Shown in pieces: positions 11,357-43,331 of a stretch of DNA of 43,331 bases. The translations under genes were made by a program, and so were the position numbers. How positions within the stretch are numbered: position 1 is the first letter of the stretch; each line of letters starts with the position of its first letter. The DNA lies in contig CAYVTG010000003.1 in assembly GCA_964454575.1 (NCBI GenBank), positions 1 through 43,331 on the forward strand, given 5' to 3'. The notes beneath the pieces were generated by a model. It was not told the origin of the DNA. It searched no databases and saw only the letters and a program-made list of their open reading frames with translations. This DNA is from an uncultured Thermoplasmata archaeon. Lineage in GTDB: Archaea; Thermoplasmatota; Thermoplasmata; Halarchaeoplasmatales; Halarchaeoplasmataceae.

Positions 11357-12457
11357 TCACATCAGTCCGAGTTCACCTAGTTTCTCGGGTAGATATACAT
11401 CGGTAACGTAGTCCAAACCATACTTTGCCAGAGCCTGCTGTTCAGCTTTTTTGTTTATCTCCAGCATGGTTTCTATCTCATCCTTCCAAAATCTAGTATT
11501 GAACCTTGGGTCTTCGAGTTCCTGTTTCAATGCATTTTTATCCGTGGTACTCAATTTGTCCGTTGGTAAATCGTAGTTTAAAATATCACTGGCCGTGATA
11601 CCCACATATTCTGCAGTAGGTGTGGCAAGCAGTTCAGATAGATGGGCACTATTGATCGCCCCGTACGCTACACTGGCAAAGATGCGAAAACTCCAAGGGT
11701 CTCCGTCGGTAAAAACGACTACCGGAAGACCTTGTTCTTCATTCAATCTCTTCATCAATCTTCTAGTCGACCGAGCTGGCTGTCCTTTCAGGTGGACGAG
11801 CAGTGCGTTTGCTTCTTCATCGAAGCCGTTCTCCACAAGCCTGTCGAACATACCGCCTGTCTCGATGGCGATTATGAAATCTACATTCACGTTAGAAAAG
11901 TTGAGTTTGTCCTTCTCTACATTGTATGGTATGGTGTAGCCTGAATCACCGACATCGTCCCGGCAGTTAAGCTTTCTTAGATCACCCTTTCTTGTCTTCT
12001 CTTCGACAACTATATCTCCGATTATCCTCGCTCCGTCCTCTTCTGGTCTCAGTTTAAAATCTTCTCTAAGACAGTCTGTAACTATCTCTATGTCCTCTGC
12101 GAGTCTATCCGACTCTTTTTGATCTCCGAATTTGGCTTTGTTCCATCCTTCTGAGATATAGTACATCTCCCTCAAAGTAGATGATTTTTCGGTGTCGAGC
12201 ATATCTCTAATAAAATCTAGCATGTACAGAGTGCGAAGTATCATTATCGCTCCGCTTATCTTCTTAGCCGAGCGTGTGCTTTTTGAATTCCCTAATTTCC
12301 AAACACCCGCACGTTTATTGAACTTGATATTACTTTTACTACGGGTCGCGATCTTCATCTCCGGTATCTTACCTTTATCCAACTGCGTGTAAAACTGTTC
12401 CGCTATCTGTTCCAGGCTTTTAAAGGCGTTTTGATATCTATCTCTCATTCTACTCAC
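11357..12457 (-). CDS. top6A: DNA topoisomerase VI subunit A (Spo11-like)
   Basis: [10 protein letters not shown] (catalytic Tyr region) and Toprim blocks [12 protein letters not shown] and [13 protein letters not shown]. The start overlaps the top6B stop by 8 nt. Confidence 0.93.
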
Positions 12458-20400: not shown

Positions 20401-23400
20401 GTAGATACGAAACGGATGTCGTACGGCCATCCGTGTATGGATGTGTAATCCATATCTACCGTATCGTTGAGACCACCTTTGTTATGTACTCTGAGTGGGA
20501 TGACCGCACTATCCCCCGGATTTGCCAGGTGGGTTACTAGATCCGGCTCGCAGGTGATCTTTGGTAACGGTATAACGGTTTTTATCATCAAAGAATGAGT
20601 CACATTCGGGTCAGTAACCGATATGGCATAAACCGTCACATTATCTGTTATACCTGGTTGGACATCTTGTGGTACTGAAACACGCAGAAGTATATCTTTG
20701 TATCCTTCAGTTTCTATAATCCCCGTATCGGCCAGAGGGCCGGAGCCATTAACATGGTATGATTCTACGTGCCAATCGTTTTCTGAATTAGCTTCGAGTT
20801 CAAAAGATTCGGCTGTTTCTCCAAGATTTCTGATCCGTACCATATATTCAACGGTTGTATCTTCAGCGGCTTCTTTAGTATCCAAAGACGATCCTATATT
20901 GACTTCATGGGTATGTGGATCCAACCATGCGAGTATTCGCTGCATCAAGCTCTCCCTTGTATCCGCGTTCGCCACCGCCGCAAAATCGAATCCTGTGTAA
21001 ACCGTTTTGAACGTATCGTCCACGGAAGTGGCGGCAGCGAAACCTTCTCTCAATCTGAATATTTCACGCGCGTTACCTCTGACCTCTCCGTATATCCCTC
21101 TATTATCTAGCTCCTCCAAAAATTCACCGTTTTTGTATATGTCTAATTCCATCATATCTCCGATAGGGTGACCATCGACTCCGTAAGCGCTACTCGGATA
21201 CGACCACCAGTTCAATCTGGATCTGAAGCCGAAATACTGTGTCATGAAGTTTACGTATCCTTCTTCGTCGGCTATATACCCGGCTCCCTGGCTGGAGAGG
21301 TACAATTTCCCATCCATATCCAGATATGCTTTTATGGCGCTACGATGCTTATCGGGGAGAGAGTCAGTTAAAGAAGATGAGTGTGTCCCTCTATGGTTGC
21401 CGGTAAACCAGATAACGGATCCGTGTGAGGCCATACAGTTCGGGTCAGGTGGTCCTTGTTCGGCGATGACCCATTCGTTAAACGTTCGATGGGTGGATGA
21501 AACTGCATTCTTGAAATAATCCGAAGAGCCTATACCTCCGTCGTCGTTGACCAGCAGGACATGAGCTTTGGGATACGTGAACAGTACAACAGTATCCCCA
21601 ACAAGAGGGTCCACAGACGAGTTAAACACGACCTCTGTTCTTTCGGGCACATCTCCAGGTAGTGCATCAGAAGGAACGGTCACATTGACCTTTAAGTTGG
21701 TTGTTTTCCCCGCATCCACAGAGATGTTATCGGATATCGGGTTCCATAAAGTATCATAGAAATTTACCTCCCAACCACGGTCAGAGAAGTGTTGGAAATT
21801 GAAAACATCGTCGGAACTTCCCCGATTGCTCAGATATATTTCATAAGTGCCATCCTCCTCGGGTTGGGCTGCTCCGCCCTGTACCTGTTCGTCGATCCTG
21901 ATACCCGCCTGTGACACGGATATATTTACGTCGTCGATGTACCATCCTGCGCGAGTGGAACCATCTCCACTGGCAAAATGCCATCTGAGCATTATCGTAC
22001 GGTCTATGTATTCATAAAAGTCGAATATCTCTTGAGTCCATACCTTATTAGCACCGCTGTAGGCCTCTCCTCCCAAGCCCCCAAATATTCCGCTGGTGTA
22101 CGGATACCCATCTTTAGGCGTCAATCTGGACCATGTTCTACCACCGTCATAGGATAATTCCACGATCCCTCCGTCATTGATGGATTCGATGTGATACCAA
22201 TGCATGAACGATAGTTCCGCGGTGTTTACACCTTTCAGTGAGATAGGGGGCGACGTGAGGGTGGTTACAGAGTGATCTGTGTAAAGTGAATCGATATTCG
22301 TTCCCCAGCAGTTGCTTCCTGAATGAGAGGAATCCGGGCCGTACTCGGATCCAGAGGGATCTCCCGATTCCCATAAGGTGTCGACGTTGTCGAAATCTAC
22401 AGACCAGTTTTCTCTCCCATCCTCGAAGTCGTCGTGCCATGTGGGTACGATGGGGACGACTGTTCGTATGTTTACCTTTCCGGAGATCGAAGGATTTAAT
22501 GAAGATCGGAAAACCACCGAGATCGTATCATCCTTCCGATATACGGCATCTTCGGGTACATGCACACTGACGATAATGAACTTTGAACCGCTTACGGAGA
22601 TCCTACCTGTATCCGGGATATCGTTGTGGTTGCTATCTTTGATCAAAGTTCCATCGGTATACAGTATATCATGATTCCAGTGTGGATCTTCTATGTAAAC
22701 ATCAAATGTATCAGCCCCGTTCCTTCCCGTATTGAACACCTTGAGTTTATGTTCGACTGTGTCTCCCGGTAGCCCGTAGGCCGTCTGTTCAGGCGGACTT
22801 ACGTGTACACCGACGGGAGGTTCAAGGAGCCAATCGATAGTTCTCTTTACGGAATCTATCATCTCATCGGGTCTGACGAAAGATAATTCCCATGCAAAGA
22901 AGGCTGTGCGGAATGAGTCTCTCTCGTATGCAACACCATGGTACGGATATCTTATGCTCCCGCTTTCCACCACGCCATAGGCCCCGGCCCTCGGTTTCAG
23001 TTCGTATGCTACGTCATATCGGGTAACCCCCTTCTTCCAGTGGCTTTCGATATTGCCCTCCATATCTTCCATGAAGGTTCCAAAGACACCCTTGACAGGG
23101 TTTACAGTTGGTTCGTGGTTGGAATAGAGTGCTTCCACACCCATATAGTTACGCAAAAATGAATCACCGGAAGTCACAAAGTTTCCTCTCCCGTGAAGAT
23201 CGTTAGCCAAAAGGGGACCGATCAACCAGAGCGAGCCGCCCTCATCAAGGTACGATTCAAGGTTGGAAATATCTTTGGTGGTTAGAGTGCTTTCTCTCGT
23301 TCTAGAATAACCATTATACCCGGTAACCCATATTACAATCTCGTAAACTCGCATGACCTCTAAAGGCGGGCCATCCTGTCCGGAGGTGACCACATATTCT

Positions 23401-26419: not shown

Positions 26420-26428
26420 ATGTTCGGA

Positions 26429-29400
26429 ATGGGAAACAAAAAGATAGTAAGCTGGGCCTTGGTAACGTTATTGATGATATCCACTCTATCCGTGTTATTT
26501 ACGGGTAATGTGATGGGACAGACGTATTTAGGGGAAATCACACCGAGAGATGTGGATGGGACTCTGAAAAATGAATTTTTAGAGGGAGATCTTCTTTATT
26601 TTAAAGTGTCCATAACGGAAAACGCTAACGCTACAGAGACATCGGTTACATTGAAGATCAAAGATGAAAACGGTATCACTGAAGATCAAATGAGTGTGAC
26701 AACTGGTATAAATGGTATCTACGAAAGTTGGGAACAGGATCCACCTGTTTACTTCGACCTTTCCGGTTATCAAACTGGTACATACACACTGAATATAAGT
26801 CATCCCGTGGGAGACCATACAAACGCTACATTCGAAGTGTTTTCAAACTATGCTCACGGGTCTTCCGTAGAGACATGGCATGATAATGCCGGAGATATCG
26901 AACGGGAAAATTTTGTCAGGGGCAGTCTGATATATTACGATGGTTATATCCGTGATGCCTTCGACGAACCGTTGGAATGGGGAAACGTAGATGTGGGTAT
27001 TTTCCAGAAAGGAGAGGCCAATCCTGTAAGTGACCACACTAGAAGTACATTGACGGACGGATATTTTTCCAGTTCATTTATGGTTCATCAGAACTGGGAC
27101 TACGATGATTATTATCTTAATGTGACTTATGATTACGGTGGTGACATAGGCGAACAAGTCGTTGCCAGTAAACAGATAACCATCTATGAACCGGATTATA
27201 CCGACAACTCCATCATAGTCACCACGGATTCGGATTACTCAACGGAGAAGGATTACTTCTTCGAAAACGAATACTTATACTATCATCTCAAAGTCTTAGA
27301 TCAGCATGGTTGGACGCCCGAGATGTATCCGGACGATAGGGTCAGAGTATTCTTACAAAAACACGAAGAAGAACCTTACGAAATAGGCTGGCATAATTTA
27401 GATAACCTAGGATCGGCCAATCGTAGTTTTTATATCTCTCACTTGCCTTATGATGAACTTAAAGGCGACTATGATATCTTTCTTTACAGCCACGATAGCG
27501 ATATCTCCGACGGAGAGATAAAAGGGACCCTATACGCATCGGATCCATTCTATGTTATCTCGATGGATATATATATACATCCTTCACTAACTCGCTATAC
27601 ACAGGGTCAGGACATAGAGATACGTATAGAGAGTAACCTTCCCGACGAAGTCGATATCACCATCGTTAGTCAGATATCCGGATCTTATGAGATACTACAG
27701 GGGGCAGAATGGGAAGACCAGGAATTCTTGGATGAATTTTGGAATGCAGATTATAGGATACCGAGTAATACACCCGATGGAGAATATTATGTTGTCGTCA
27801 ATCGCTCCGACGACGGCAGGTTTATCGGTTCTCATCAATTTACTATTAGGAAATACACTCTTGATGTAGAAACGGAAAAGGAAGTTTACTTGCCCGGGGA
27901 AACAGTAAGAGCATACTACACGATCGAAAATATCCTTGATGGTTCACAATCAACGGGAGTAACAGTTCAATGGCGTGTAACCTACAGGAACGAAACAAAC
28001 GACGAAGTGATGTTCAAGGGAACTACGACCCAGGGTTGGTTCAGCTTCATGCTGCCAGAAGACGCTAGGACAAATCATCAATTTATAATCGAGGTCTGGG
28101 CAAATCACACTTCCGGACATACCCATGATAGAAGGTTGACGAGATATGTGGGAAGACTATCTACAGATATAACTTTAGACGATCATGAATATCTACCTGG
28201 ACAGACCATCTATCTAGATGTAGTTACAAGTGCAAACTATTATGGTTGGAATCAATATCTGGGATACGCCGACCTCAAAGTTGAATTATTAAAAGACGGC
28301 GATGTCCTTGGGGAATATACGGTAGAAACATCCACAGATTCCAGCGGCCACAGGACCATCTGGATCGAGCTGTCGGATGATATAGAAGCCGGCATATATA
28401 CGATCAGAGCCAATGGAACATACAATGATAACTGGGATGAAGATGAAGAACAATTCGAAGTCGTTGACCTTAGTAGAGTATTGACGATACACCTCCGAAC
28501 CGATAAGGGCGGTAATCATTACTATCCCGGAGACACCGTTACGATAACTTATTCCGTAACAAGGCAGGGAGAAATCGTCACAGGAGCGAATGTCAAGTAT
28601 TATGTGAGCGACTCGCAAAAAGTACACGCCTTCGAATACGCTTCAGGCGGTTCCATCGTATTTGAAATACCCACGGATTATAACCCTGAAACCAGCGGAA
28701 ATCTGGAAGTTTCAGTGTATGCCAGATATGACCAGGAAACAGTAGGATGGAACGAGATAGCTATACCTGTAGATCTAGGCAGGATATTGATTAATTCAGA
28801 TGATAATGAGTTCGAAAAAGGCGGTGATAACCTTACCTTTAGATACGAACTACTTCATATCCCACAAGGATCTATAGACACGATCGAATATCGCGTTTAC
28901 AATGCATACGGCCATATAGTGAAAATGGGTACGCCCGTCGGGGGAATGTTTGGTTTTTCCATACCGCAAAATCCTACGGAATATTACACTGGAAGCGTAA
29001 CAGTTCTTACAACCGGTGGTAACACGATAACCGCAAATATCGACATTGCAAAGAGAGCTGGATATCTGCTTTCTGTGAATATACTTACCGGATCAGATTA
29101 CACTACCGGAGTTTTCGTTCCCGGACAAAAATTGCGTGTCAGCTATGAACTGATATCCCGGGGAAACGAACCTCTTCCCGAAACGATACAATTGAGCTAC
29201 AGGATATCCGGCGAAGATTTCGCCAGAACAATTTCAACACAAAACACATCCGGTGTCGTCGAGATAACTATACCACAACTAGAGGACGGAGAATATTATC
29301 TCAACTTCAATGCACAAGGATTTGCTGACAACGGTAGGATGTTCGAAGTGGAAAATGAACCTTCCTGGGTAAACAAAAATTCCGCAATAAACGGACTCAA

Positions 29401-29674
29401 TCAGTTCGGTTTCCTTATCTTGATACTACTGATAATCGCTTTACTGCTCGGCACATTGACTTCGATAATAGTTCTTTTTAGACGTCCTAAAAGTATGAGG
29501 CAAAAGGAACCCCGGCGCAGAGAGCCTGTTGAAAGAGAAGAAGTACCGTACGAAGAACCGGAGCCGGAGATGGTAGAAGATGAAGGATATATCATCGAAG
29601 AAGGTGAGCCGGAACCGGAAGATAGATGGCAAGCCGGTGATCAGATAGAAAAAGATGAGGATATGGAATGGTAA
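26429..29674 (+). CDS. surface protein with about nine tandem macroglobulin(MG)/Ig-like beta-sandwich repeats, a C-terminal TM anchor and an acidic cytoplasmic tail
   Basis: Signal peptide KKIVSWALVTLLMISTLSVLFTGNVMG. Repeats of about 100-115 aa contain Y.PG(E/Q/D)(T/K)(V/I)-type strands (VYLPGETVRAYY, EYLPGQTIYLDV, HYYPGDTVTITY, VFVPGQKLRVSY). TM FGFLILILLIIALLLGTLTSIIVLF. I prefer ATG 26429 over 26420 because GGAGG (26415-26419) abuts 26420 but is well spaced from 26429. Confidence 0.8.
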   Translation: MGNKKIVSWALVTLLMISTLSVLFTGNVMGQTYLGEITPRDVDGTLKNEFLEGDLLYFKVSITENANATETSVTLKIKDENGITEDQMSVTTGINGIYESWEQDPPVYFDLSGYQTGTYTLNISHPVGDHTNATFEVFSNYAHGSSVETWHDNAGDIERENFVRGSLIYYDGYIRDAFDEPLEWGNVDVGIFQKGEANPVSDHTRSTLTDGYFSSSFMVHQNWDYDDYYLNVTYDYGGDIGEQVVASKQITIYEPDYTDNSIIVTTDSDYSTEKDYFFENEYLYYHLKVLDQHGWTPEMYPDDRVRVFLQKHEEEPYEIGWHNLDNLGSANRSFYISHLPYDELKGDYDIFLYSHDSDISDGEIKGTLYASDPFYVISMDIYIHPSLTRYTQGQDIEIRIESNLPDEVDITIVSQISGSYEILQGAEWEDQEFLDEFWNADYRIPSNTPDGEYYVVVNRSDDGRFIGSHQFTIRKYTLDVETEKEVYLPGETVRAYYTIENILDGSQSTGVTVQWRVTYRNETNDEVMFKGTTTQGWFSFMLPEDARTNHQFIIEVWANHTSGHTHDRRLTRYVGRLSTDITLDDHEYLPGQTIYLDVVTSANYYGWNQYLGYADLKVELLKDGDVLGEYTVETSTDSSGHRTIWIELSDDIEAGIYTIRANGTYNDNWDEDEEQFEVVDLSRVLTIHLRTDKGGNHYYPGDTVTITYSVTRQGEIVTGANVKYYVSDSQKVHAFEYASGGSIVFEIPTDYNPETSGNLEVSVYARYDQETVGWNEIAIPVDLGRILINSDDNEFEKGGDNLTFRYELLHIPQGSIDTIEYRVYNAYGHIVKMGTPVGGMFGFSIPQNPTEYYTGSVTVLTTGGNTITANIDIAKRAGYLLSVNILTGSDYTTGVFVPGQKLRVSYELISRGNEPLPETIQLSYRISGEDFARTISTQNTSGVVEITIPQLEDGEYYLNFNAQGFADNGRMFEVENEPSWVNKNSAINGLNQFGFLILILLIIALLLGTLTSIIVLFRRPKSMRQKEPRRREPVEREEVPYEEPEPEMVEDEGYIIEEGEPEPEDRWQAGDQIEKDEDMEW

Positions 29675-29727
29675 ACTACGCACAAATAGGCGTTTTACAC
29701 TACCAAAACCTAAAATACTCCTAAGTT

Positions 29728-29747
29728 ATACCCCATAAAAGGGGTAT
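29728..29747 (+). promoter_or_regulatory. perfect 7-bp hairpin (ATACCCC-ATAAAA-GGGGTAT) just upstream of the KaiC-like TTG start
   Basis: Seen directly in the sequence. The 3' arm GGGGTAT is the only SD-like purine block ahead of TTG 29752. Confidence 0.4.
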
Positions 29748-29751
29748 TCAC

Positions 29752-30537
29752 TTGGCATGGAGCACTAAAACAACAAAAGACGAAGGTAAAGAGCAAGCAA
29801 AGAAAGAAGTTAAACGACCTGTAAAGAGCACGGTTTCTATAGATAGGGTACCTACGGAAGTAGTCGGCCTTGATGAAAAGATGGAAGGCGGCGTTCCCAG
29901 TGGTTTCATAGTACTTATAGCTGGTAACAGTGGTTCTATGAAGACATCCGTGGCTTTTAGCATACTTTATAACGCTTACAAGAAGCACAACAAAAAAGGC
30001 ATGTACATCTCGCTGGAACAGAGCAAGGGCAGCATCATCACCCATGTGGAGCGGTTGGGAATGCCATTGAAAGGTATGGCGAACCCGGTGATCATCGACC
30101 TGTCCAAAGTGAGAAAAGATACAGGTAAAGCAGGTAAAGAAGAGAAGATCGATTGGCTGGGCTCAACGCTGAAAGTCATCAAAAAGTACAAGGAAGCCTT
30201 CGGATGCGAAATACTCGCTTTCGACTCTCTAGCCGCATTATATGCCGTAAACGAATTCGACAACCCAAGGAAGGATCTTTTCTATTTCTTTGAAGGCCTC
30301 AGAGATATAGGTCTCACTACATTCTTGATATCGGAGATACCTAAAGGCCAGGACGTTTATGGAATATATGGTGTGGAGGATTTCCTTTCGGACGGAATAC
30401 TCCATTTGAAGGCAGAGGAGATGGATACTGGAACTAATATCTACCTTAAAGTTGTAAAGATGAGACAGACCCATCACAAGAGAGGCTTCATGCCTTTGAT
30501 CTTCGATGACGGCAAGTTTGAAGTATTGAAAAGGTGA
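29752..30537 (+). CDS. KaiC-like RecA-superfamily ATPase with non-canonical Walker A
   Basis: The KaiC pattern RVPTEVVGLDEKMEGGVPSGFIVLIAGNSGSMKTS has GNSGSMKT in place of GxxGxGKT. ISLEQ replaces the usual EE, Walker B is EILAFDSL, and the C-terminal block is VKMRQTHHKRGFMPLIFDDGKFEV. TTG is the only in-frame start that keeps the conserved N-terminal block. Confidence 0.8.
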   Translation: MAWSTKTTKDEGKEQAKKEVKRPVKSTVSIDRVPTEVVGLDEKMEGGVPSGFIVLIAGNSGSMKTSVAFSILYNAYKKHNKKGMYISLEQSKGSIITHVERLGMPLKGMANPVIIDLSKVRKDTGKAGKEEKIDWLGSTLKVIKKYKEAFGCEILAFDSLAALYAVNEFDNPRKDLFYFFEGLRDIGLTTFLISEIPKGQDVYGIYGVEDFLSDGILHLKAEEMDTGTNIYLKVVKMRQTHHKRGFMPLIFDDGKFEVLKR

Positions 30538-30538
30538 T
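30533..30538 (+). promoter_or_regulatory. GGTGAT Shine-Dalgarno embedding the upstream TGA stop (coupling KaiC-like -> HhH gene)
   Basis: AAGGTGATATTATG. The stop at 30535-30537 lies inside the SD and the ATG is at 30542. Confidence 0.55.
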
Positions 30539-30541
30539 ATT

Positions 30542-31705
30542 ATGGAAATAGTAAACGAACTCAAAGCTATCCATGGAATCGGCGAAAAAAGGGCGGAACG
30601 ATTAGTCGATTCCGGTATAAAAAATATGAACGACCTAGCCAAGAAGTCAAAAGAAGAACTTGCGGATCTGGGTCTTAACGAACGTGTTATAAGGAATGTT
30701 TTGGAATATTTCGAAGACTTCAATGTGGTTGAGGTACAAAGTGATAATACAAAACACGAGGAATACGAATCGCAGATACTCGAGTGGGCGGCCGAAGGCT
30801 ACTATGTTGTTCCCGTCGAAGAAGAACTGAACGACGCTGGGGACCCCAAAAAGGTGATGGATAAATTCGGTAATGCAGTAAAATTATCCCGGGATATGCG
30901 AAACAAGATCATAGACATGAATGTAGCAGAACATCTTGACGAAGCTGAAAATCTCCTGGATATGACATTCGATCTTGGCAAGATGGATCAATGGAAAGAT
31001 AGTTTTGAAGATTTGGTCAAGAAGATAGATGCTCGCGACTTGAGGTATGAATTGGAGGATATGAAGATACCTCAATTACAGGACCGCATAGATGCTGTTG
31101 TATCACAACTAAAGGAAGAAATGGATGCCGAATCCGTAAGAGATGAAGTTGAAGATATAAAACGGTCTTATCAGGAAAACTTTTTTGTTGAAGAGTTCAT
31201 CAAAGATTCGGATGAAAAGGAATATCGAGAATCTGTTCAAGTACACCACAAGGAAACTAAGATACCTTCTAAAGCCATGCCTATAGATGATATATTCCTC
31301 TTCCACGGACCTAAAGGCATACTCTTGATAAAATGGTACAAGCACAAACTGTCTCCCGAAAGAGGGGTAAAGGGCGCTAGAAATATAGTGAGTGATATAC
31401 GCAACTACATAAGAACGGCAAAAAAATTCAAACCTAACATGCTGTTGAAGATGAAGGCTGCGGACGGTACGAATATAATCTTGACCCGAGGAAAGACACT
31501 TGTACTTGCAGCAACGGTTTCCGGAGGGATGTCCGATTACGGTCGAAAAGCACTCGTTAATTCAGTAAATTTGATCGAAGGGGTAGACGGGCCGATCTTA
31601 AAAGATTGGAACCGTAAGAAAGGAGAACCAGAGTACTTAGAAAAAGTGATGAAAGCACTGCTCCTTCTATCGTTAAGGAACAGAGATAAAGGGGGCAAAA
31701 GATAA
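30542..31705 (+). CDS. helix-hairpin-helix protein with an acidic helical middle and a C-terminal Roadblock/LC7-like domain (uncharacterised)
   Basis: N-terminal HhH LKAIHGIGEKRAERLVDSGIKNMNDLAKKSKEELADLG. The C-terminal alpha/beta block (aa 247-375) is paralogous to part of the 37309..38805 product. The ATG lies 3 nt after a GGTGAT that contains the upstream TGA stop. Confidence 0.7.
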   Translation: MEIVNELKAIHGIGEKRAERLVDSGIKNMNDLAKKSKEELADLGLNERVIRNVLEYFEDFNVVEVQSDNTKHEEYESQILEWAAEGYYVVPVEEELNDAGDPKKVMDKFGNAVKLSRDMRNKIIDMNVAEHLDEAENLLDMTFDLGKMDQWKDSFEDLVKKIDARDLRYELEDMKIPQLQDRIDAVVSQLKEEMDAESVRDEVEDIKRSYQENFFVEEFIKDSDEKEYRESVQVHHKETKIPSKAMPIDDIFLFHGPKGILLIKWYKHKLSPERGVKGARNIVSDIRNYIRTAKKFKPNMLLKMKAADGTNIILTRGKTLVLAATVSGGMSDYGRKALVNSVNLIEGVDGPILKDWNRKKGEPEYLEKVMKALLLLSLRNRDKGGKR

Positions 31706-31851
31706 ATCCCGCCATCGGAAAAAACATAGGAAAAATACTCGATTCCCTAGCAAGCAAGAAAAGAAGGCAGATATACGTATGCGACCTTCCATCCGGTAAA
31801 CGTACCGAACTTTTAACCACCGGAGGTCAGGGTAAATACATCCGATACAAA

Positions 31852-34263
31852 TTGCCTACCTCCGATGATATCGGCGATATCGCACTCATACCTACTATAC
31901 TATCTGCACTTTCACATTCTACCGATGGTAAGATCAAGATATCTAAGAGAGACCATAGGATAAAAGTTAAGCGAAAAAAGATATCGACCCACACACTTAT
32001 CATCCTTGATGTAAGCAGCTCGATGATGGAAGGCAGCAAGTTGATGGTCGCAAAAAAATGCCTTGATGAAATCTTTTTAGATACCTATCAAAAACGTGAT
32101 AGGATCGCTGTTATCACTGCCGGGGGTGAGCAGGCCGACTACCTTTTACCCTTCACATCTAATATCGAGAAGGGCAGAGAATTGATAGATTCTATCGGGT
32201 TCGGCGGCACTACACCGCTTTCTTCCGGTCTACGAAGTGGAATTCGGGTCCTTGAAGATATAATGAGAAAAGAACCCTGGATGGTACCTATAATGGTAAT
32301 AATTACCGATGGAGGTGCAAATGTTCCATTATCTATGGGAGGTAGTATCCAAGATGAATTCTCCCGCCTATCGTCTGAAATGGACTATGTGAACATAAGG
32401 CCATTAGTTATCAATGTGGGTGACGATTCGGCTCTCTGCGAAGAGATGGTATGGAAGACCGATGGTAGATATCTATCTTTAACTGTTGAGGACGAATACA
32501 TCTCTTCGGATCTTGAGCTTGAAAAAGAAGTGGAAGATATACTGCACGGGATATTACTTTCTTTTGTTGGTAGTAACACCACTTGTTTGTCCTATGACGG
32601 TTATAGCATGGAAGCCTTAAGTAAAGTAAAAGAGATATTGGAAGATCATCCTATCAAGATAGAGGTAAATGAAGACTGTCACTACGGATGTTCACCACAT
32701 GATGACCCTTCTGATCTTTGTCGAGAGTGTCTGTTGAAAGTCAACGAGGATATGAACACTATATCAAGGGCGGCAGGCATCGGTTATGTCTCAGAACACC
32801 AAAACGAAAAAGATCTTCGAGGAGAGCTATTTGTGAGATACCTCGTTCAACCGGGTACATTGATGAAAGCTCACAACGGTATTCTTTTCGTGGAAGACGA
32901 AGCCGCTTATGATAAATTTTCAGATCTAATCGAAACAGGGATAAATAAGGGTGAATGTAATGCATCCAACGCCGAATACACAGAATCATATCCCTTCAGA
33001 CCACATGGTGTGATCGTGCGGCGAGATCAAGATTATATCGACTTGGACGACAAGTTCCATGTTCGGTACAAAGATGTAGTAGAAGAAAAACTGTGGATGG
33101 TCAACGCGGAAAGAGATTCAAAAACCGACCATACTAAATTCATGGAAGAATTAGGATCGAGTCGTTTGGAGAAGATAGATATCATAAACGGTCTGATAGC
33201 CGGTGATATATACGTAAATGTCCCGGATTACATCAACGATCTACTTCGGAATGCCGTTGACCCCGATCAGATCAATAATATAATCGGCCTGGCCAAAGCT
33301 TCTGCCGCGCTCAAGGGTAAAGATAAGGCAAATCTGGAGGACCTTGCAGATGCGCTGAAACAAACAGATATCTCCATGGCCATCGATGAAAGCAATTCCC
33401 ATCAATATCTTTTTAGTAAACTCGCATTCTCTCTGGCCGCCAAAGATGAAATCAAACTTTCACTCGTTGACGGATATACATATGATGAATTTAGCGATGC
33501 GATAGATATCATTTCTGAATTACCTATCACCATCGAAACATTACCGGAGTGCTCGAATAACTGCCACCCAAAGAGTGATGATCTGTGTCCGGAATGCAGG
33601 ATAAGATGGGATGATAAAGATCCGGAAACAGTCGAAATACCTTTACCGCTGGTTCGTATAAAGGGAAATGAATCCCTTCAACAACTCAGAGGTGAATTAT
33701 TCGTTAAATATGTATTGACCTCGGACACACTTTTGAAAGCTAACAGAGGCTTACTAGTCATCGAATCCATAAAAGATATGGATACGGATACTATTGCATT
33801 TTTAAAAGAATTATTGACCACGGGGAAATTCACAGTAAGGAACGAAGAACATTCCCAATCTTTCCATGTTGACCTCTCTGTGATCGCACTTAAAGACAGC
33901 AACAGATACAACGATCTGATCGATCATTCTATAGGACATGTGATCACAAAAGAAGATTACGAAGATATTCTACCACCGATATTCGGCGGGGATAGAGGTG
34001 ACCAATTTATAGAAAGAACACTGGAGCGTATCGAAGAAACACGAAGTAACGAAACAGAACTATCTGACGAATTACTTGACTATATCATCAGAGTCTGTAT
34101 GGAATTGGGGATAAACAGATATGATGCTGAGATAAAGATAGAGCGATTGGCAAAAGCAATGTCGGTATGGAATGGAAGTGAAGTTACCAACGAAGTGATA
34201 AATAAAAGCATCAGCACACTTGCACCTTTGATGGGGGAAGGTATGCGAGATAATATAAGGTGA
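31852..34263 (+). CDS. vWA (MIDAS) domain protein fused to two tandem P-loop-less ChlI/BchI-like AAA+ modules; true start uncertain
   Basis: ChlD-like pre-vWA linker and vWA with MIDAS LIILDVSSSM...GGTTPL...VIITDGGAN. Two modules then align by eye to ChlI: LLKANRGLLVIESIKDMDTDTIAFLKELL / LMKAHNGILFVEDEAAYDKF versus [29 protein letters not shown]. Each module has a CxxxC..CxxC cluster and a lid helix, and neither has a GxxGxGK[ST]. Confidence 0.8.
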   Translation: MPTSDDIGDIALIPTILSALSHSTDGKIKISKRDHRIKVKRKKISTHTLIILDVSSSMMEGSKLMVAKKCLDEIFLDTYQKRDRIAVITAGGEQADYLLPFTSNIEKGRELIDSIGFGGTTPLSSGLRSGIRVLEDIMRKEPWMVPIMVIITDGGANVPLSMGGSIQDEFSRLSSEMDYVNIRPLVINVGDDSALCEEMVWKTDGRYLSLTVEDEYISSDLELEKEVEDILHGILLSFVGSNTTCLSYDGYSMEALSKVKEILEDHPIKIEVNEDCHYGCSPHDDPSDLCRECLLKVNEDMNTISRAAGIGYVSEHQNEKDLRGELFVRYLVQPGTLMKAHNGILFVEDEAAYDKFSDLIETGINKGECNASNAEYTESYPFRPHGVIVRRDQDYIDLDDKFHVRYKDVVEEKLWMVNAERDSKTDHTKFMEELGSSRLEKIDIINGLIAGDIYVNVPDYINDLLRNAVDPDQINNIIGLAKASAALKGKDKANLEDLADALKQTDISMAIDESNSHQYLFSKLAFSLAAKDEIKLSLVDGYTYDEFSDAIDIISELPITIETLPECSNNCHPKSDDLCPECRIRWDDKDPETVEIPLPLVRIKGNESLQQLRGELFVKYVLTSDTLLKANRGLLVIESIKDMDTDTIAFLKELLTTGKFTVRNEEHSQSFHVDLSVIALKDSNRYNDLIDHSIGHVITKEDYEDILPPIFGGDRGDQFIERTLERIEETRSNETELSDELLDYIIRVCMELGINRYDAEIKIERLAKAMSVWNGSEVTNEVINKSISTLAPLMGEGMRDNIR
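31987..32496 (+). other. von Willebrand factor A domain with DxSxS MIDAS motif
   Basis: DVSSS at aa 53-57 (nt 32008-32022, checked in the DNA), T of GGTTPL, and D of ITDGGAN. Confidence 0.8.
32524..33381 (+). repeat. ChlI-like pseudo-AAA+ module 1
   Basis: aa 225-510. The Walker A position reads LLSFVGSNTTCLSYDG. Cys cluster CHYGCSPHDDPSDLCREC (nt 32677-32730). Lid-like INDLLRNAVDPDQINNIIGLAKASAALKGKDKANLEDL. Confidence 0.65.
33394..34260 (+). repeat. ChlI-like pseudo-AAA+ module 2
   Basis: aa 515-803. The Walker A position reads IKLSLVDGYTYDEF. Cys cluster CSNNCHPKSDDLCPEC (nt 33550-33597). Lid-like LLDYIIRVCMELGINRYDAEIKIERLAKAMSVWNGSEVT. Confidence 0.65.
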
Positions 34264-34264
34264 T
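34259..34264 (+). promoter_or_regulatory. GGTGAT Shine-Dalgarno embedding the upstream TGA stop (coupling vWA gene -> short ChlI-like gene)
   Basis: AAGGTGATCTTACCATG. The stop at 34261-34263 lies inside the SD and the ATG is at 34271. Confidence 0.6.
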
Positions 34265-34270
34265 CTTACC

Positions 34271-35068
34271 ATGGAAAAAAGAACCGGAAATTTTCCATTC
34301 ACAGCCGTTGTTGGCCAAGATCCATTGAAGAGATTTCTATCTATGTGCGCTATATCTTCTGATCTCGGCGTTGTGATGATCCAAGGACCTAGTCACACCA
34401 TGAAATTACGGCTTGTTAACGCCATGTGTCATATAGCAGATGGTATATCGGATAAAGATACAGATACCTTTTTCATAGCCAATTCTTACGGATCTTATGA
34501 TGTTGAAAAGATCATAAACGATACTAAGGTTGAGTACGTAGTCATCCCATCATTTGAACGCTACGCAAAATCCAAAAAAGAAGATATATTGGATTCCTGG
34601 GGAAGTAAAAAAGAACGCGACAATTTATTGATTTTGCTCGAAAACAACGACTCCTCAGATAGTTACAAAAATATCGATTTTTATTTACGCGTCAAACCGA
34701 TAGATGATATCGAACGGCGTATAGAGATGGTGAAGCGAGAGAGAGATTATCTATCTAACAGAGAAGCTTTTACACAAAGATTCGATGATGTGGAATCTGA
34801 ATTCATAAACCGGATCGGTAAAGCCAGGAAGATACTTCCTGAGATCAACATAGCAGAGACTTTAAAAATAGAATTACGCGAGAAATTGAGTGGCATATTT
34901 TCAGCGAAAGATAGTCAAAGACCTTATGATCTTGTTTTAAAGTATGCACGAGCCGAAGCGGCGTTCAACAACAGACGATGGGTTTCACAAAACGATATCG
35001 AATCCGCATTTAGCTATCTCAACTATCAAACCGTCCAAAAAGTTCCTTCTCCTTACGTATCAAACTGA
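34271..35068 (+). CDS. short ChlI/BchI-like protein with a degenerate P-loop (pseudo-AAA+)
   Basis: N-terminus FPFTAVVGQDPLKRFLSMCAISSDLGVVMIQGPSHTMKLR parallels ChlI fPFtAIVGQeemK..LLl..idp.iGGVli.GdrGTGKST, but GPSHTMKLR replaces GxxGTGKST. The C-terminal lid block DDIERRIEMVKRERDY...KARKILPEINI...RPYDLVLKYARAEAAFNNRRWVSQNDIESA matches the ChlI lid. The ATG lies 6 nt after GGTGAT. Confidence 0.7.
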   Translation: MEKRTGNFPFTAVVGQDPLKRFLSMCAISSDLGVVMIQGPSHTMKLRLVNAMCHIADGISDKDTDTFFIANSYGSYDVEKIINDTKVEYVVIPSFERYAKSKKEDILDSWGSKKERDNLLILLENNDSSDSYKNIDFYLRVKPIDDIERRIEMVKRERDYLSNREAFTQRFDDVESEFINRIGKARKILPEINIAETLKIELREKLSGIFSAKDSQRPYDLVLKYARAEAAFNNRRWVSQNDIESAFSYLNYQTVQKVPSPYVSN

Positions 35069-36035
35069 TCTCAACTTTGTCCAATTCATCCTTTCTTGCC
35101 ATCATGGATGATATCATCTCTTGCAGATATTTTCTCTTTTCTTCTAATTCTTCTATCTTTTCATCGTACTTGGCTTCCGTCCTCTTCAAGTCCATCTCTC
35201 TTTTCGACAATTCTTCGCTTCTTATATCGATGGTTTTCTGGATCTCTTCTAGTTTTGCTTCTCTCTGTTTGATCTCCCGACGTAGATCTAGTTTTCTATT
35301 CTCTAGTTTCTGTATTTCTTCGTTCAATTCCTCTTCCTTAAACTCAAGTTCCGTTTCCCTCATATCTGCATCGGCAAGACGCTCTTCGAGATTTGTCTCT
35401 AATTCTTTTAGTTCGTTCTCCTTATCTAAGAGTTCATCACGTCTTCTTTCAAGGTTTTCTCTTAATTCGTTTAGTCCCTCTTCTCGACTCTCGACACCTT
35501 TCTGTTTTTCTTCGAAGATACGCTTTTCATGCTGTAATTTTTCTTCACCGGAGATGATATCCTGGACTCTCTTGTTCAACATCTCGTCTCTCTTAGCCAT
35601 CTCTTCCTTCATTATGTCGAGTCGTTCCCTCAACTTGAGGGCTTTTTCCATCTCCTCTTCTCCTTCGCTCTGAATAGTTAAAGCCTTCAATTCCATCTCT
35701 TCCGCTTCCACCTTTCTTTCGTCGAGTTCTTCTTTGTAAGATCTCAATTTAGACTTAACGCTCTCAATTTCGTTTTCTTTTTCTTCGATCTTCTCTTCCC
35801 TCTGGTTCAATCTGGATGAAAGTTCATCTATATGAGATCGTTCTTCGGATATCTCTTTTTCCCACTCTTTGAGTTCCGATTCTTTTTGTTGAAGTTCTTT
35901 TTCTTTGTTTTCAAGAGTGGTCTTTCTGCTTTGTAGTATATTTGTAAGGTCAGAAACACTACCCACTCTACGTTTAACACGACGGACTATACCTTGTTTT
36001 TCTTCATCATCACTTTCCTTTTCTTCCTTTTCCAT
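35019..36035 (-). CDS. E/K/R-rich long coiled-coil protein
   Basis: About 300 aa of continuous heptad-like charged sequence (KEKELQQKESELKEWEKEISEE...LEEKRKYLQEM). The complementary-strand Ser-rich ORF is its shadow. I prefer ATG 36035 over the TTG at 36044. The 3' end overlaps the convergent upstream gene by 50 nt. Confidence 0.6.
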   Translation of the reverse strand: MEKEEKESDDEEKQGIVRRVKRRVGSVSDLTNILQSRKTTLENKEKELQQKESELKEWEKEISEERSHIDELSSRLNQREEKIEEKENEIESVKSKLRSYKEELDERKVEAEEMELKALTIQSEGEEEMEKALKLRERLDIMKEEMAKRDEMLNKRVQDIISGEEKLQHEKRIFEEKQKGVESREEGLNELRENLERRRDELLDKENELKELETNLEERLADADMRETELEFKEEELNEEIQKLENRKLDLRREIKQREAKLEEIQKTIDIRSEELSKREMDLKRTEAKYDEKIEELEEKRKYLQEMISSMMARKDELDKVEISLIRKEKELFGRFDS

Positions 36036-36111
36036 CTTGATCAAGGATTCTCATCAAAACATAAATACTTTCTGTCTTAAACACCCGTTATTTTTATTTA
36101 CATCCATTGGC

Positions 36112-37305
36112 ATGAAGGTTCATAAAAACAAATGGGGAATCTACTTGAAAACCGGACTAAACTACCTGCTGTACGAGGAACGACCTGATAAAAGCTTCGT
36201 GTTACTTGAAGAACTGATCAAAGAACACCCAGTACTGTGTATAACTACAATTTACCCAGAAAAGCTTAGAAAGATGTATGATCTGGAAGCCGCAGCCATA
36301 GTATGGTTAACAGATTCAGAGGGTGGTGACGACACAGTCCGTCCCGAAAGGTTGGACTTCGAGCTGTCCAAAGGTGTGATGAACTTTGTAACCGACAATC
36401 CGGGATGTGTAGTGTTGATAGAGGGCTGCGAGTATCTCATGCTGGAGAACGATTTTAAGAACGTCAAGAAATTCTTTAAACGTATAAACGATCTAGGCTC
36501 CGTGAACGGATCTACGATCATGGTATCCGTTAGTCCAGACGCCTTCGATAGAGAGACCGTTGCCGCCTTTTCAAAGGATTTTGATAAAGCATGCAAACCG
36601 GAAGAGCTTTCGGAGAAAATACCTGAAACAGCCCCCGCTAAAACGGAAAAAGAATCACCTAAACCTCAACCTACCCCTCCGCAACCAGCAAAACAGCCGG
36701 AAGTTGCCAGCCAACCACCCACAGAAGAACCATCGGAATCTACCACTGATCTTTTAGCCAAGGCAGATAGGTATATGAAGAAGCGAGATTACAACCAAGC
36801 GGTTTCTTTTTACGATAAATTACTCAGATCCGAACCTCATAACACAAGAGCATTGTTCAACAAAGCTGTTTGCCTCCAGATGTCAAACCGTTTACAGGAG
36901 GCAGTCAAGGTTTACGACCAATTACTAGAGATAAATCCACGTGATATAGATTGTCTTATCAATAAAGGTCTGGCACTGAGAAAGATGGGAGATATGCAGG
37001 GGGCTGTGGAAACCTATCGAAAGGCGGGAGAGATCAACCCAGGCGACTCTACCGTTTGGAATAACCTTGGTATAGCACTAAAAAGCATGGGTAAGTGGGA
37101 AGAAGCCATAGATGTATATGACAAAGGACTTTCTGCAAGACCGAACGATGCCGGGTTGTGGAGTAACAAAGGTGTTGCCCTTAAAGAAGCAGGCAGGCTG
37201 CAGGAAGCCTTGGATTGTTATAATAAAGCACTCGCCATCGACCCATCTAGAACGATGACTAAACAAAATAAATCTCTACTGGAAGAAGAGATGAAACGAA
37301 ATTAA
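36112..37305 (+). CDS. DUF835 (inactivated KaiC/RecA-like) domain - P/Q/E-rich linker - TPR repeat protein
   Basis: DUF835 signature LNYLLYEERPDKSF...HPVLCITTIYPEKLRKMY......IVWLTD.......VRPERLDFELSKGVMNFV...GCVVLIEGCEYLMLENDFKNVKKFFKRINDL....GSTIMVSVSPDAF. Then KPQPTPPQPAKQPEVASQPP and five TPR units (A..FYDKLL..EP.N..ALFNKA...). Start set at ATG 36112 because the upstream part of the tracked ORF overlaps the divergent gene. Confidence 0.8.
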   Translation: MKVHKNKWGIYLKTGLNYLLYEERPDKSFVLLEELIKEHPVLCITTIYPEKLRKMYDLEAAAIVWLTDSEGGDDTVRPERLDFELSKGVMNFVTDNPGCVVLIEGCEYLMLENDFKNVKKFFKRINDLGSVNGSTIMVSVSPDAFDRETVAAFSKDFDKACKPEELSEKIPETAPAKTEKESPKPQPTPPQPAKQPEVASQPPTEEPSESTTDLLAKADRYMKKRDYNQAVSFYDKLLRSEPHNTRALFNKAVCLQMSNRLQEAVKVYDQLLEINPRDIDCLINKGLALRKMGDMQGAVETYRKAGEINPGDSTVWNNLGIALKSMGKWEEAIDVYDKGLSARPNDAGLWSNKGVALKEAGRLQEALDCYNKALAIDPSRTMTKQNKSLLEEEMKRN

Positions 37306-37308
37306 AGC

Positions 37309-38805
37309 TTATATCCAAGTCAAACTTTCCAGTATAAGAGTTTTTTCAAGTAATTGGTGCTTTCTTTCTTCGTTGCTATCAAGAGCGATAGCATCATTAT
37401 AAAATTTCAATGCGCTATCCGTGTTAAAACTACGTAAGTACTGATCACCTGCTTTTATGGAATATTTTACCGCTTTTTTACGGATGATATCGTATTTAGA
37501 TGCGTAGGGCAGCAACAATTCGGCGATGCGGATGTTGTATTGAGGGGAATTGTTTTTGATCAGTGCGGCCGCGACCCTCAACTCTATCTCCTTTTTTTCT
37601 TTTCCTTGTATACCTTCGAGTGCACGTTCCCTTAGGCGGCTATTGGCAAATCTATTACCTTTTATTATGCCGGCCTTCTTCAGTTTATCCATCACATCTC
37701 CGATATTTATATCGGTTTTTTTGAGCGCTTGTTTCAACACGTCCGTATCAAAGGTACCGATCATCGCGGCATAACTAAGTAATGTCATAGCTTTGGGTTC
37801 CACATCGGTTAATTTTGAGCGTACGAGTTCTTCTATATCTATGTCTGAACGTATAGAAATATGTGTGCAATTACCTTCGTCCTCCTGTTCCCTTATAAAC
37901 TCCCCCACGGCTTCGTTAAATTCAGTTTCATCTAGAACATCCGTATTGTGCTGACAGATCACGACGGCATCTGTGTTATGTACCACATGTTTTATCAAGT
38001 CCAAGGAAAGCGGATCTATCGTTTCGATATCATCAAATAAGAAGGCTAGTTGGTCACCCTTCGCTGAGATCTCATCGACTTTCTCTGATAGATATGTTTT
38101 GATCTCTTCTTTATTTTCCATGATATCTTCCATATCTAAGACGCCGTCATATCTTCCCGACCCTAGGAACGTTTTATTCAGTTCTTCGGTGATATTATTT
38201 AGGAAAGACTCATTCGTGTTTCCCGACCACTCTTTAAGATCCGTAAGATGATTTTCATTGATATATCGGATGGTTTTATCCAGGTCACCTTCTATCGACC
38301 TTGATATGTCTCCTTTGTACGTGACGATGAGAACACAGTCTTCTCCCCTTCTGATACGTATGGTAAGATTTCCTAGATTTTCATCCCTGTATGACAGTGC
38401 ATCCAAACCGCCTCCGTCTTCTTTTTCTTCTCCACTCCATTGTTGAATGGAATCTTTAACAAAGTTACTCACAGCGTTCAACATCCCAGAGAAGATGTCA
38501 GCATCCATACTGGATTCTTCACGATGAGCTTCCGCAAGTAGCATCCCGTTCATATCTGAGAGGTATACCATCATGACTTTAGGCGGAGTTCTGATCCTCA
38601 ACATCTCCGAATGTTTTGGTAAGGCTCTGCTGAACACATTATCACTTTTGATGGATGCAGTGGCCTCACGCACATCGAAATCTGTCAATACGTTCTTTGC
38701 AAGTGTAAGACCGTCTTCCGCACCTATCTCACGTTCTATGATAACAAAATTTCCTTTATCTAGAGCTCCGCGAACTTTCCCCGAAATATCCTTTGAACTG
38801 TCCAT
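37309..38805 (-). CDS. Roadblock-like domain + STAND/AAA_16-like helical region lacking a P-loop + TPR-like C-terminus
   Basis: aa 76-205 are paralogous to the C-terminus of the 30542..31705 product. QLAFLFDDIETIDPLSLDLIKHV resembles the Walker-B/DDxxWxD block of AAA_16 regulators, but no GxxxxGK[ST] is present anywhere. The C-terminus has TPR-like ALKFYNDAIALD. Confidence 0.65.
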   Translation of the reverse strand: MDSSKDISGKVRGALDKGNFVIIEREIGAEDGLTLAKNVLTDFDVREATASIKSDNVFSRALPKHSEMLRIRTPPKVMMVYLSDMNGMLLAEAHREESSMDADIFSGMLNAVSNFVKDSIQQWSGEEKEDGGGLDALSYRDENLGNLTIRIRRGEDCVLIVTYKGDISRSIEGDLDKTIRYINENHLTDLKEWSGNTNESFLNNITEELNKTFLGSGRYDGVLDMEDIMENKEEIKTYLSEKVDEISAKGDQLAFLFDDIETIDPLSLDLIKHVVHNTDAVVICQHNTDVLDETEFNEAVGEFIREQEDEGNCTHISIRSDIDIEELVRSKLTDVEPKAMTLLSYAAMIGTFDTDVLKQALKKTDINIGDVMDKLKKAGIIKGNRFANSRLRERALEGIQGKEKKEIELRVAAALIKNNSPQYNIRIAELLLPYASKYDIIRKKAVKYSIKAGDQYLRSFNTDSALKFYNDAIALDSNEERKHQLLEKTLILESLTWI

Positions 38806-42626: not shown

Positions 42627-43331
42627 TTAGCCCCATTTCTCCTTTACCAACCCTGTCAGCTTCTCTTTGCTAAATTCACCTACTTCAAACGGCTGCTTTC
42701 GCATACGGTGTGGCAATGCCAACTCGGAGGCTTGTATGATATCTTCTATCGTAACGGACGTACGATCGTTGTATGCCGCATTGGTTATTGCTGTTCTAGC
42801 TATGATTATGTCTCCTCTATGGCCGTCTATATCGAATTCTCTACATATACGGCAGATCAAATTCAGCTTCTCGTCAGACAATTCAACATCTTTGAGTTTC
42901 TTATTAGCCCTATGGATTTTTTCTCTTAAATTTTTTTCCTCGTCTTTATGCCTTCTCATCAAACCGTAGGGATCTTCAAGAAAATCACGGTTTATCTTGA
43001 TCAATTCTAGTCTTTTATCTGGATCACTGATGGTCTCGGTCTCTACTTGAAGTGAAAATCTGTCCAGGAGCTGAGGTCGTAGAAATCCTTCCTGAGGATT
43101 CATACTGGCGACTAGCATGAAATCGGACATATAGTTGGTAGAGATCCCTTCTCTTTCAACAGTAACGACCTTCATGGCTGCTACATCTAAAAGAAGGTCA
43201 ACGATATGGTGATCTAATAAGTTGATCTGATCTATGTACAATATATTCTTATTTGCTCTCGCTAGGAGTCCCGGCTCGAATGATTTAACCCCATCCTGAA
43301 GAACTTTTTCCACATCTATGGTACCGATCAA
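42627..43331 (-). CDS. magnesium-chelatase subunit I (ChlI/BchI)-like AAA+ protein, C-terminal 234 aa; N-terminus is off the window
   Basis: LIGTIDVEKVLQDGVKSFEPGLLARANKNILYIDQINLLDHHIVDLLLDVAA...VEREGIS...NPQEGFLRPQLLDRFSL...DGHRGDI...LPHRMRKQPF is collinear with plant/bacterial ChlI/BchI as I recall them. The leading M in the ORF track is an artefact of the window edge (TTG = Leu). Confidence 0.85.
   Translation of the reverse strand: MIGTIDVEKVLQDGVKSFEPGLLARANKNILYIDQINLLDHHIVDLLLDVAAMKVVTVEREGISTNYMSDFMLVASMNPQEGFLRPQLLDRFSLQVETETISDPDKRLELIKINRDFLEDPYGLMRRHKDEEKNLREKIHRANKKLKDVELSDEKLNLICRICREFDIDGHRGDIIIARTAITNAAYNDRTSVTIEDIIQASELALPHRMRKQPFEVGEFSKEKLTGLVKEKWG

Follow-up and report, generated by a model that had tools for sequence, protein, structure and literature searches.

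In the ChlI/ChlD engine, ChlI is the motor; its partner ChlD has an AAA+ domain in which no ATPase activity can be detected, along with a MIDAS that is essential (PMC6604950). The MoxR AAA+/vWA pairs (NorQ/NorD, CbbQ/CbbO, RavA/ViaA, CoxD/CoxE and the Bat operon), some of them membrane-associated, also join an AAA+ ring to a MIDAS vWA adaptor. Further, archaeal KaiC-like ATPases have been proposed as signal-transduction hubs (Makarova, Galperin and Koonin 2017, as cited in PMC5847659 and PMC4858521), a proposal that, as relayed by these citing papers, includes inactivated KaiC domains such as DUF835 and MEDS. Passages of the two papers also list KaiC-like ATPases, vWA proteins with MoxR/GvpN ATPases, and Roadblock proteins, each separately, as putative regulators or recurrent partners of archaeal surface-structure loci. 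The locus described here consists of seven genes, named A to G, at positions 29752-38805 of a 43,331-nucleotide (nt) stretch of DNA from an uncultured Thermoplasmata archaeon (assembly GCA_964454575.1, contig CAYVTG010000003.1; the whole stretch is called the window). Its components belong to known kinds. In the literature searched, where Makarova, Galperin and Koonin 2017 is represented by papers that cite it, no description of a KaiC-like, ChlD-like pseudo-AAA+/vWA and Roadblock-STAND unit was found; an earlier, sequence-only reading of this DNA had likewise known of none with a vWA/pseudo-ChlI core. Tentatively, and at slightly less than an even chance, we read A–G as the cytoplasmic regulatory and adaptor half of a lineage-specific ChlI/ChlD-type AAA+/vWA machine, with two ChlI-type proteins from a linked second cluster, I1 and I2, as its partners.

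The seven open reading frames (ORFs) lie where the sequence-only reading had placed them, save for corrected starts. That reading had described a locus made largely of modules with P-loop nucleoside triphosphatase (NTPase) folds, linked in its first four genes as an operon and forming a dedicated scaffold or switch. Motif reads and profiles agree that six such modules are spread over the seven genes and that none of the six carries a canonical Walker A (GxxxxGK[ST]), and profile and structure searches bear out the module identities proposed (KaiC-like, DUF835, three ChlI-like, STAND/AAA_16-like, vWA, HhH, coiled coil and TPR). The vWA/MIDAS, HhH, coiled-coil and TPR parts are accompanied by two Roadblock-fold domains. 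The gene neighbourhood proved conserved: about 10 Thermoplasmata populations known from metagenomes have the arrangement A B C D E' F G', with the same order and the same strands on all contigs of sufficient length, and the order persists even where C, which is 41-71% identical between loci, has diverged to 41%. The families of B, C and G go together one to one and are rare to the same degree, with nine other clusters for C, eight for G and seven for B among 5.8 billion proteins. C was found in 4 of 185,579 species genomes, to which a metagenome scan added just one further true contig, with a short locus, besides an ordinary ChlI/ChlD pair, and every family hit belongs to a Thermoplasmata or Thermoplasmatota metagenome-assembled genome (MAG). 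Given the rarity of these families and the same order and strands in all adequate contigs, A–G is a dedicated conserved unit and not a chance neighbourhood. The idea of a dedicated unit therefore stands, whereas that of a self-contained scaffold of dead NTPases loses ground to a linked cluster with two near-canonical ChlI-type AAA+ proteins; the all-dead picture arose because the boundary drawn earlier left this second cluster out.

The resemblance to ChlD centres on C (31702..34263, + strand), which encodes a ChlD-like linker, a vWA domain and two ChlI-like AAA+ modules. It matches VWA_2 (E 5e-11), TIGR02442 (E 5e-51) and TIGR02031 (E 2e-33), with fragments of Mg_chelatase and AAA_lid_2; its vWA domain matches the BchD integrin-I domain of 2x31_A (E 3e-8), and its module 2 aligns to residues 55-322 of ChlI 6l8d. 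As in the ChlD vWA domain, the MIDAS is complete (DVSSS...T...D), and LDVSSS, GGT and TDG are conserved across homologues. The nearest outgroup locus of this vWA domain, found in the metagenome scan, is an ordinary ChlI plus ChlD pair. D (34271..35068, +) is a reduced ChlI-like protein (TIGR02030, E 1e-19) that aligns to ChlI 8osf and 6l8d in two segments, the N-terminus (6-67) and the lid (138-249); the core between them is shortened and the lid domain is intact. When the modules were aligned with genuine ChlI-type proteins of a related locus, the Walker A position, GDKGTGKS in ChlI, read YDGYSMEAL in C module 1, VDGYTYDEF in C module 2 and GPSHTMKLR in D, and the Walker B position read VEDE and IESI in the two C modules, the region being deleted in D. 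Both C modules lack a P-loop, and each carries an invariant Cys4 insert.

Compared with ChlI/ChlD (BchI/BchD; 2x31, 1g8p, 6l8d), C shares a vWA/integrin-I domain with a DxSxS MIDAS after a ChlD-type basic linker, ChlI-like modules with a Cys-rich insert and AAA_lid_2, and the union of ATPase-silent AAA+ with vWA that typifies ChlD; a ChlI-type AAA+ partner is likewise encoded nearby. However, the ChlD/BchD order of N-terminal AAA+, linker and C-terminal vWA is reversed in C, which runs linker, vWA, AAA-like, AAA-like, and three silent AAA+ modules are distributed over C and D instead of one. The curated equivalog cut-offs are not reached either: C scores 174 against 779 for TIGR02442, 116 against 499.55 for TIGR02031 and 36.2 against 466.95 for TIGR02030, and D scores 70.7 against 466.95 for the last. 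D and both C modules thus lack the Walker A, the hhhhDE Walker B and the equivalog score expected of a ChlI/BchI AAA+ protein, and the large substrate subunit gene, ChlH/CobN, is absent from all fetched loci. The MoxR pairs differ further, as the AAA+ proteins here are of the ChlI and not the MoxR (AAA_3) type, DUF58 is missing, and those pairs come without KaiC, Roadblock or STAND components; a point of likeness is that the Bat operon has TPR proteins and F weakly matches the BatC TPR.

The second cluster comprises five genes. I1 (346 aa) is a soluble ChlI-type AAA+ protein, its ortholog at locus L011 scoring 375 bits for TIGR02030, and I2 (668 aa) has four transmembrane (TM) segments and a coiled coil followed by a ChlI-type AAA+ domain. 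X228, X448 and X730 (about 228, 448 and 730 aa) have no family matches, and searches of the PDB with the sequences of X448 and X730 were uninformative; X228 and X448 each carry a signal peptide and are anchored by a C-terminal TM segment. The cluster directly follows G in L001 (16794-22238) and L002 (8548-13959), and lies beyond the genes for proteasome beta, aCPSF1, rpS2 and rpoK in L011 (1-6175) and L012. L016 starts likewise on its proteasome beta side, its contig ending in aCPSF1. The window follows the L011/L012 pattern, with a putative intervening rpoK ORF, and at its end holds the C-terminal 234 aa of I1 (42627..43331, - strand), cut by the window end; this fragment is 88% identical to the L011 ortholog and matches AAA_lid_2 (E 7e-16) and Mg_chelatase. 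In L010, the most divergent clade, a homologue of X730 lies directly upstream of A. The second cluster is therefore linked to A–G through three different arrangements, with I1/I2 adjacent or less than 4 kb away in the window, L001, L002, L011 and L012. I1 has a canonical Walker A and a D-Q Walker B (LYIDQ in the window), and I2 has GEKGTAKS for Walker A and a canonical D-E Walker B; the I1 D-Q and the I2 GTAKS are conserved in all orthologs and, like the membrane anchoring of I2 by four TM helices with a coiled coil, set the pair apart from ChlI/ChlD. No vWA domain is encoded in the second cluster, whereas A–G has a vWA domain but no intact AAA+.

Protein A (29752..30537, +; 261 aa), a single-domain KaiC/RadA-like protein, belongs to the KaiC family (PF06745, E 3e-39; 135.3 bits against a gathering cut-off of 26.6), and its residues 26-254 align to KaiC CI structures (E 1e-28). 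By architecture it is not a bona fide circadian KaiC, as it has one domain in place of tandem CI and CII, and it falls below the equivalog cut-offs of NF006799 (104.8 against 408) and TIGR02655 (68.8 against 546). Nor does it have the canonical GxxxxGK[ST] and catalytic E-E of circadian KaiC: its Walker A is GNSGSMKT and SLEQ stands where KaiC has E-E, the Walker B Asp being retained (LAFDSL). KaiB-like or thioredoxin-like neighbours, the KaiB/KaiA partners, were found neither in the window nor in related loci.

The sequence-only reading had counted this P-loop as defective, a term that misleads for A because the motif and the E-Q pair are invariant across a large subfamily. An exhaustive HMMER search with A returned 103 representatives at E < 1e-30. 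In the 29 nearest representatives covering the motif, the residue before the P-loop Lys was Met in 24, Leu in four and Tyr in one, and the KaiC E-E read E-Q in all 29; GNSGSMKT and SLEQ are invariant in six orthologs of A. Judged from these alignments, GNSGSMKT is the signature of a large KaiC-like subfamily under selection, not a sign of degeneration. A is also the most constrained protein of the locus, with 81-98% identity across loci against 41-71% for C, and this identity, together with the invariant Cys4 and MIDAS residues of C, shows purifying selection. Among the longer members of the subfamily, seven of 10 are TPR-KaiC fusions and one is an HhH-TPR-KaiC fusion. A, B and F thus bring together in trans domains that other members carry in a single chain. 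As for the start of A, its first canonical start codon is a TTG preceded by AGGGG (window 29722-29751), close relatives have an ATG nine codons upstream of this TTG where the window has GTT, and a small inverted repeat, CCCCATAAAAGGGG, immediately precedes the start.

Proteins B and G share a fold that sequence families miss. B (30542..31705, +) begins with an HhH pair (HHH_5/HhH_5, E 1e-7) resembling the RadA N-terminal domain and the HhH of Pol IV and Hel308, followed by a long helical middle (about residues 70-220) and a C-terminal domain (about residues 248-380). G (37309..38805, - strand) gave no Pfam hit at full length, AAA_16 appearing with E 0.13 at a relaxed threshold. AlphaFold2 (AF2) models built on ortholog alignments reached a pLDDT of 82 for G and 77 for B. 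The top Foldseek hits of the B C-terminal domain were all Roadblock/LC7 proteins (the Rag C-terminal domain (CTD), LAMTOR and MglC; probability 0.98-1.0, target-normalised TM about 0.4-0.5). G matched STAND 6mfv, MalT 8bob and RuvBL-type split AAA+ proteins, and LAMTOR (6ehp_B, E 7e-4) over an internal segment of about 110 residues. The Roadblock domains of B and G match each other by hhalign (probability 85%, E 6e-6). A BLASTP comparison of the two proteins was not significant (E 0.67), so profile-profile and fold comparison were needed, and Pfam searches at E up to 10 with the isolated Roadblock-like segments and the middle of B returned no family. Roadblock folds in the C-terminus of B and within G are thus supported by predicted models (pLDDT about 55-90 in these segments) and profile comparison, in line with the two Roadblock-like domains of the sequence-only reading.

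The core of G is AAA_16-like, with the hhhhDD Walker B (conserved FLFDD), winged helix and short TPR-like tail of STAND NTPases. The P-loop position reads REIGAEDG, with Asp in place of the lysine, and thus departs from AAA_16. A 1171-aa AAA_16-TPR paralogue of L001 (BLASTP E 8e-20) has GEAGIGKT, the same inserted domain and then LILFIDD, which indicates that G derives from a STAND NTPase that lost its P-loop. From motifs and model together, G is best described as a P-loop-less STAND NTPase derivative in which a Roadblock domain interrupts the core between the Walker A and Walker B positions, an insertion that sets it apart from the known Roadblock platforms and AAA_16 STAND NTPases. The L001 protein (3551-7066, -) looks like an intact relative of G, and its architecture was not found described. 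A G-like paralogue in L013 (3230-7879), P0018, is longer (794 aa), has additional TPRs and is flanked by two Ras/Arf/Roc-type small GTPase genes. Roadblock domains are usually paired with small GTPases, which fits the context of P0018, and solved Roadblock domains typically pair up, as in LAMTOR and the Rag CTD. The locus resembles the Roadblock/LC7 platforms (MglB, Ragulator-Rag CTD) in having such folds in B and G and differs in that no small GTPase gene lies in the A–G locus of the window, though P0018 sits between two.

F (36112..37305, +, with its start corrected to 36112) has a DUF835 domain (PF05763, E 1e-24; residues 24-156, 87.1 bits against a gathering cut-off of 33.1), a Pro/Glu/Gln-rich linker and five TPRs (TPR_1, E 4e-38), and its identity between loci is 63-70%. 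PMC5847659 classes DUF835 among the inactivated KaiC domains (iKaiC). The pairing of a single-domain KaiC-family protein, A, with a DUF835 protein recalls the KaiC hubs as these are described in citing papers; unlike there, no type IV pilus genes lie at the A–G locus. E (35019..36044, - strand; 341 aa) is a Glu/Lys-rich coiled coil without a TM segment and gave weak matches of the coiled-coil type only (SMC, RNase Y N-terminus); its position and strand are conserved in all loci. In assembly GCA_003559355.1 A–G is split, with A–D on L018 and E–G on L012, where an IS200/605-type Y1 transposase gene (11327-11830) adjoins E at the contig end.

The first four genes are tightly joined, as the sequence-only reading had proposed for an operon, with gaps of +4 nt (A-B), -4 nt (B-C) and +7 nt (C-D). 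An AGGTGA containing the upstream stop precedes the starts of B and D: at the A/B junction (30532..30544, +) it includes the TGA of A, 4 nt before the ATG of B, and at the C/D junction (34257..34273, +) the ribosome-binding, or Shine-Dalgarno (SD), sequence within AAGGTGATC includes the TGA of C, the ATG of D following 7 nt past the stop. Genes for the subunits of heteromeric complexes show an excess of intergenic spacings in the range of the A–D junctions (PMC10666635). The convergent genes D and E share 50 nt at their 3' ends (35019-35068); the overlap is 50 nt in L009 and 11 nt in L002, and there is none in L001.

The start of C departs from the usual pattern. Its frame is open from 31690 and has no ATG, GTG or TTG before the TTG at 31852. 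About 50 residues upstream of 31852 (ILDSLAKKKRRQIY.C.LPSGKRT.LLTTGGQGKYIRY), corresponding to the ChlD linker, are kept in all homologous loci, so the coding region begins near 31702 and the TTG at 31852 sits within conserved coding sequence. Eight loci were compared at the B/C junction (the window, L001, L002, L004, L005, L009, L010 and L014). A canonical start upstream of the conserved segment is missing in four of them, and an in-frame ATA overlaps or closely follows the stop of B in all eight; in the window the ATA (31702-31704) overlaps the TAA of B (31703-31705), and the junction (31688..31705, +) includes a G-rich, SD-like run within the last codons of B. GGAGG lies exactly 9 nt upstream of the ATA in the four more divergent locus types (five loci). 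C therefore probably starts by SD-led initiation at AUA coupled to termination of B, as judged from these alignments. A -1 frameshift fusing B and C is less likely, as no X XXY YYZ heptamer is present, and in L010 and L014 the ATA is shifted 5 nt past the stop of B yet keeps the 9-nt spacing from GGAGG. Several automatic MAG gene calls start C at an internal Met and thereby lose the MIDAS motif.

Under the reading that we favour, C and D would act as a rearranged and triplicated ChlD, consisting of a MIDAS vWA domain and three ChlI-like modules silent as ATPases, so that two C:D pairs would have six modules, enough for one ring. C/D could then dock onto soluble I1 and onto I2, anchored in the membrane by its four TM helices. 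A probably still binds nucleotide through its non-standard, conserved P-loop and, with its inactivated paralogue F and the Roadblock pair from B and G, would form an input or switch layer setting the state of the adaptor. This one-machine reading draws on several lines of evidence: A–G has a vWA domain and silent ChlI modules while the second cluster has ChlI-type AAA+ proteins without a vWA domain, so that the two are complementary; the linker and vWA of C are most like those of ChlD/BchD, and ChlD is the silent partner of ChlI; the linkage between the clusters survives rearrangements; the A–D junctions have the spacing enriched among heteromeric complexes; B and G share one Roadblock subtype, and Roadblock domains typically pair; A, B and F provide in trans domains that are fused elsewhere; and A, like the Cys4 and MIDAS residues of C, is kept by purifying selection. 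Several points weigh against it. The contacts between the proteins are all ones that we infer. In the window lineage four housekeeping genes lie between G and I1, which excludes co-transcription of A–G with the second cluster there. Given the I1 D-Q and the I2 GTAKS, the motor itself may be a poor hydrolase. X730 is seen without its N-terminus, and the domain order of C, vWA first, reverses that of ChlD. Finally, the carriers are about 10 genomes of one class, and shared ancestry contributes to the synteny. A bolder extension, which we consider doubtful, would make both clusters an undescribed trans-membrane AAA+ machine in which a membrane-tethered I2/I1 ring is gated by a C2D2 silent-module hexamer-equivalent with two MIDAS domains, the gate being set by the KaiC-like switch and a Roadblock heterodimer, and which would remodel or position membrane-anchored extracellular proteins.

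Several other explanations can be set against the one-machine reading. A–G alone may be a self-contained, nucleotide-independent pseudo-NTPase scaffold or switch to which the nearby ChlI genes are unrelated. This we regard as unlikely: the absence of GxxxxGK[ST] from all six modules, the unbroken contiguity of A–G and the housekeeping genes that separate it from I1 in the window lineage would all be explained, but in A, the most conserved protein, the Lys-Thr of the P-loop, one of the catalytic Glu residues and the Asp of Walker B are retained without variation, and the linkage to the second cluster survives three rearrangements. Moreover, ChlD-type proteins are known solely as partners of ChlI-type motors (PMC6604950). 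It is slightly more improbable that two or three independent systems, namely an A/B/F/G signalling set, a C/D ChlD-like set and the second cluster, are neighbours by descent. Against such a partition, C is embedded in the A–D string, joined to B at -4 nt and to D at +7 nt, the order is unchanged down to 41% C identity, and the B, C and G families are equally rare and co-occur one to one; in its favour, members of the KaiC-like subfamily, DUF835-TPR proteins and Roadblock-STAND proteins are also found at other places where vWA and ChlI are missing (P0028-type fusions; P0018), and synteny among carriers of a single class could be partly inherited.

Functions borrowed from the nearest relatives fare worse. 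The weak matches of A to RecA, RadA and DnaB profiles, along with an HhH pair in B like those of the RadA N-terminal domain and of Pol IV and Hel308, could suggest a DNA repair or recombination module in which A is a RadA paralogue and B its DNA-binding partner. This is very unlikely, as the KaiC profile is far stronger for A (E 3e-39, whereas RecA gives 3e-4), the locus has no linked gene for a nuclease, helicase or polymerase, and HhH is also fused to TPR-KaiC proteins of the signalling type. A divergent ATP-dependent tetrapyrrole metal chelatase (Mg or Co; ChlI/ChlD/CobN type) is hardly credible at all: the best named matches are indeed TIGR02442 (putative cobaltochelatase), BchD-ChlD and BchI-ChlI, but the scores of C and D lie far under the curated cut-offs (174 against 779, 116 against 500 and 71 against 467), no locus has a CobN/ChlH-like gene, the P-loops are missing, and the context is one of KaiC, Roadblock, TPR and surface proteins. 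Pseudogenisation of A–G was also considered and rejected, as the frames are undisrupted, the Cys4 and MIDAS residues are invariant and the order is conserved.

The remainder of the window is ordinary archaeal chromosome, with two-component sensors, a rhomboid protein, Topo VI A/B, a 3945-aa surface protein, proteasome beta and aCPSF1; a window-wide search found no tRNAs or Rfam families, and PADLOC gave no anti-phage defence-system match, its hits, of the TPR, coiled-coil or AAA kind, being marginal. Immediately upstream of A are the 3945-aa ORF (14454-26291, -), whose ortholog in L017 has Peptidase_S8, PQQ/beta-propeller and Big_5 domains, and a gene at 26420-29674 (+) for a 1084-aa product that combines MG2/A2M-like domains with a signal peptide, a C-terminal TM anchor and an acidic tail; this gene pair is kept in the closest relatives only (L016, L017). 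Two minus-strand ORFs of 366 and 635 aa at 11357-14357, considered as a ChlI pair, were rejected, as they are Topo VI A and B. At 1516-6409 (+), a PAS response regulator and, after it, a hybrid histidine kinase of 1230 aa (REC, multiple PAS, GAF, HisKA, HATPase) form an ordinary archaeal two-component system with no evident tie to A–G.

The importance of the system is limited by its confinement to a few uncultured Thermoplasmata lineages. Regardless, the locus offers pseudo-AAA+ modules that strong selection has maintained, a STAND NTPase whose core is interrupted by a Roadblock domain, and a conserved, probably AUA start that gene callers overlook at the cost of the MIDAS motif. The idea of archaeal KaiC-like hubs comes from comparative genomics, and few partners have been defined for them; A–G with the second cluster gives a compact, conserved list of such partners: a KaiC-like protein, an iKaiC-TPR protein, a Roadblock pair, a ChlD-like triple pseudo-AAA+/vWA set and ChlI-type proteins. 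Engines of the ChlI/ChlD AAA+/vWA type are understood almost solely as metal chelatases; should the two clusters indeed form a trans-membrane machine, such an engine would be acting on something other than a tetrapyrrole.

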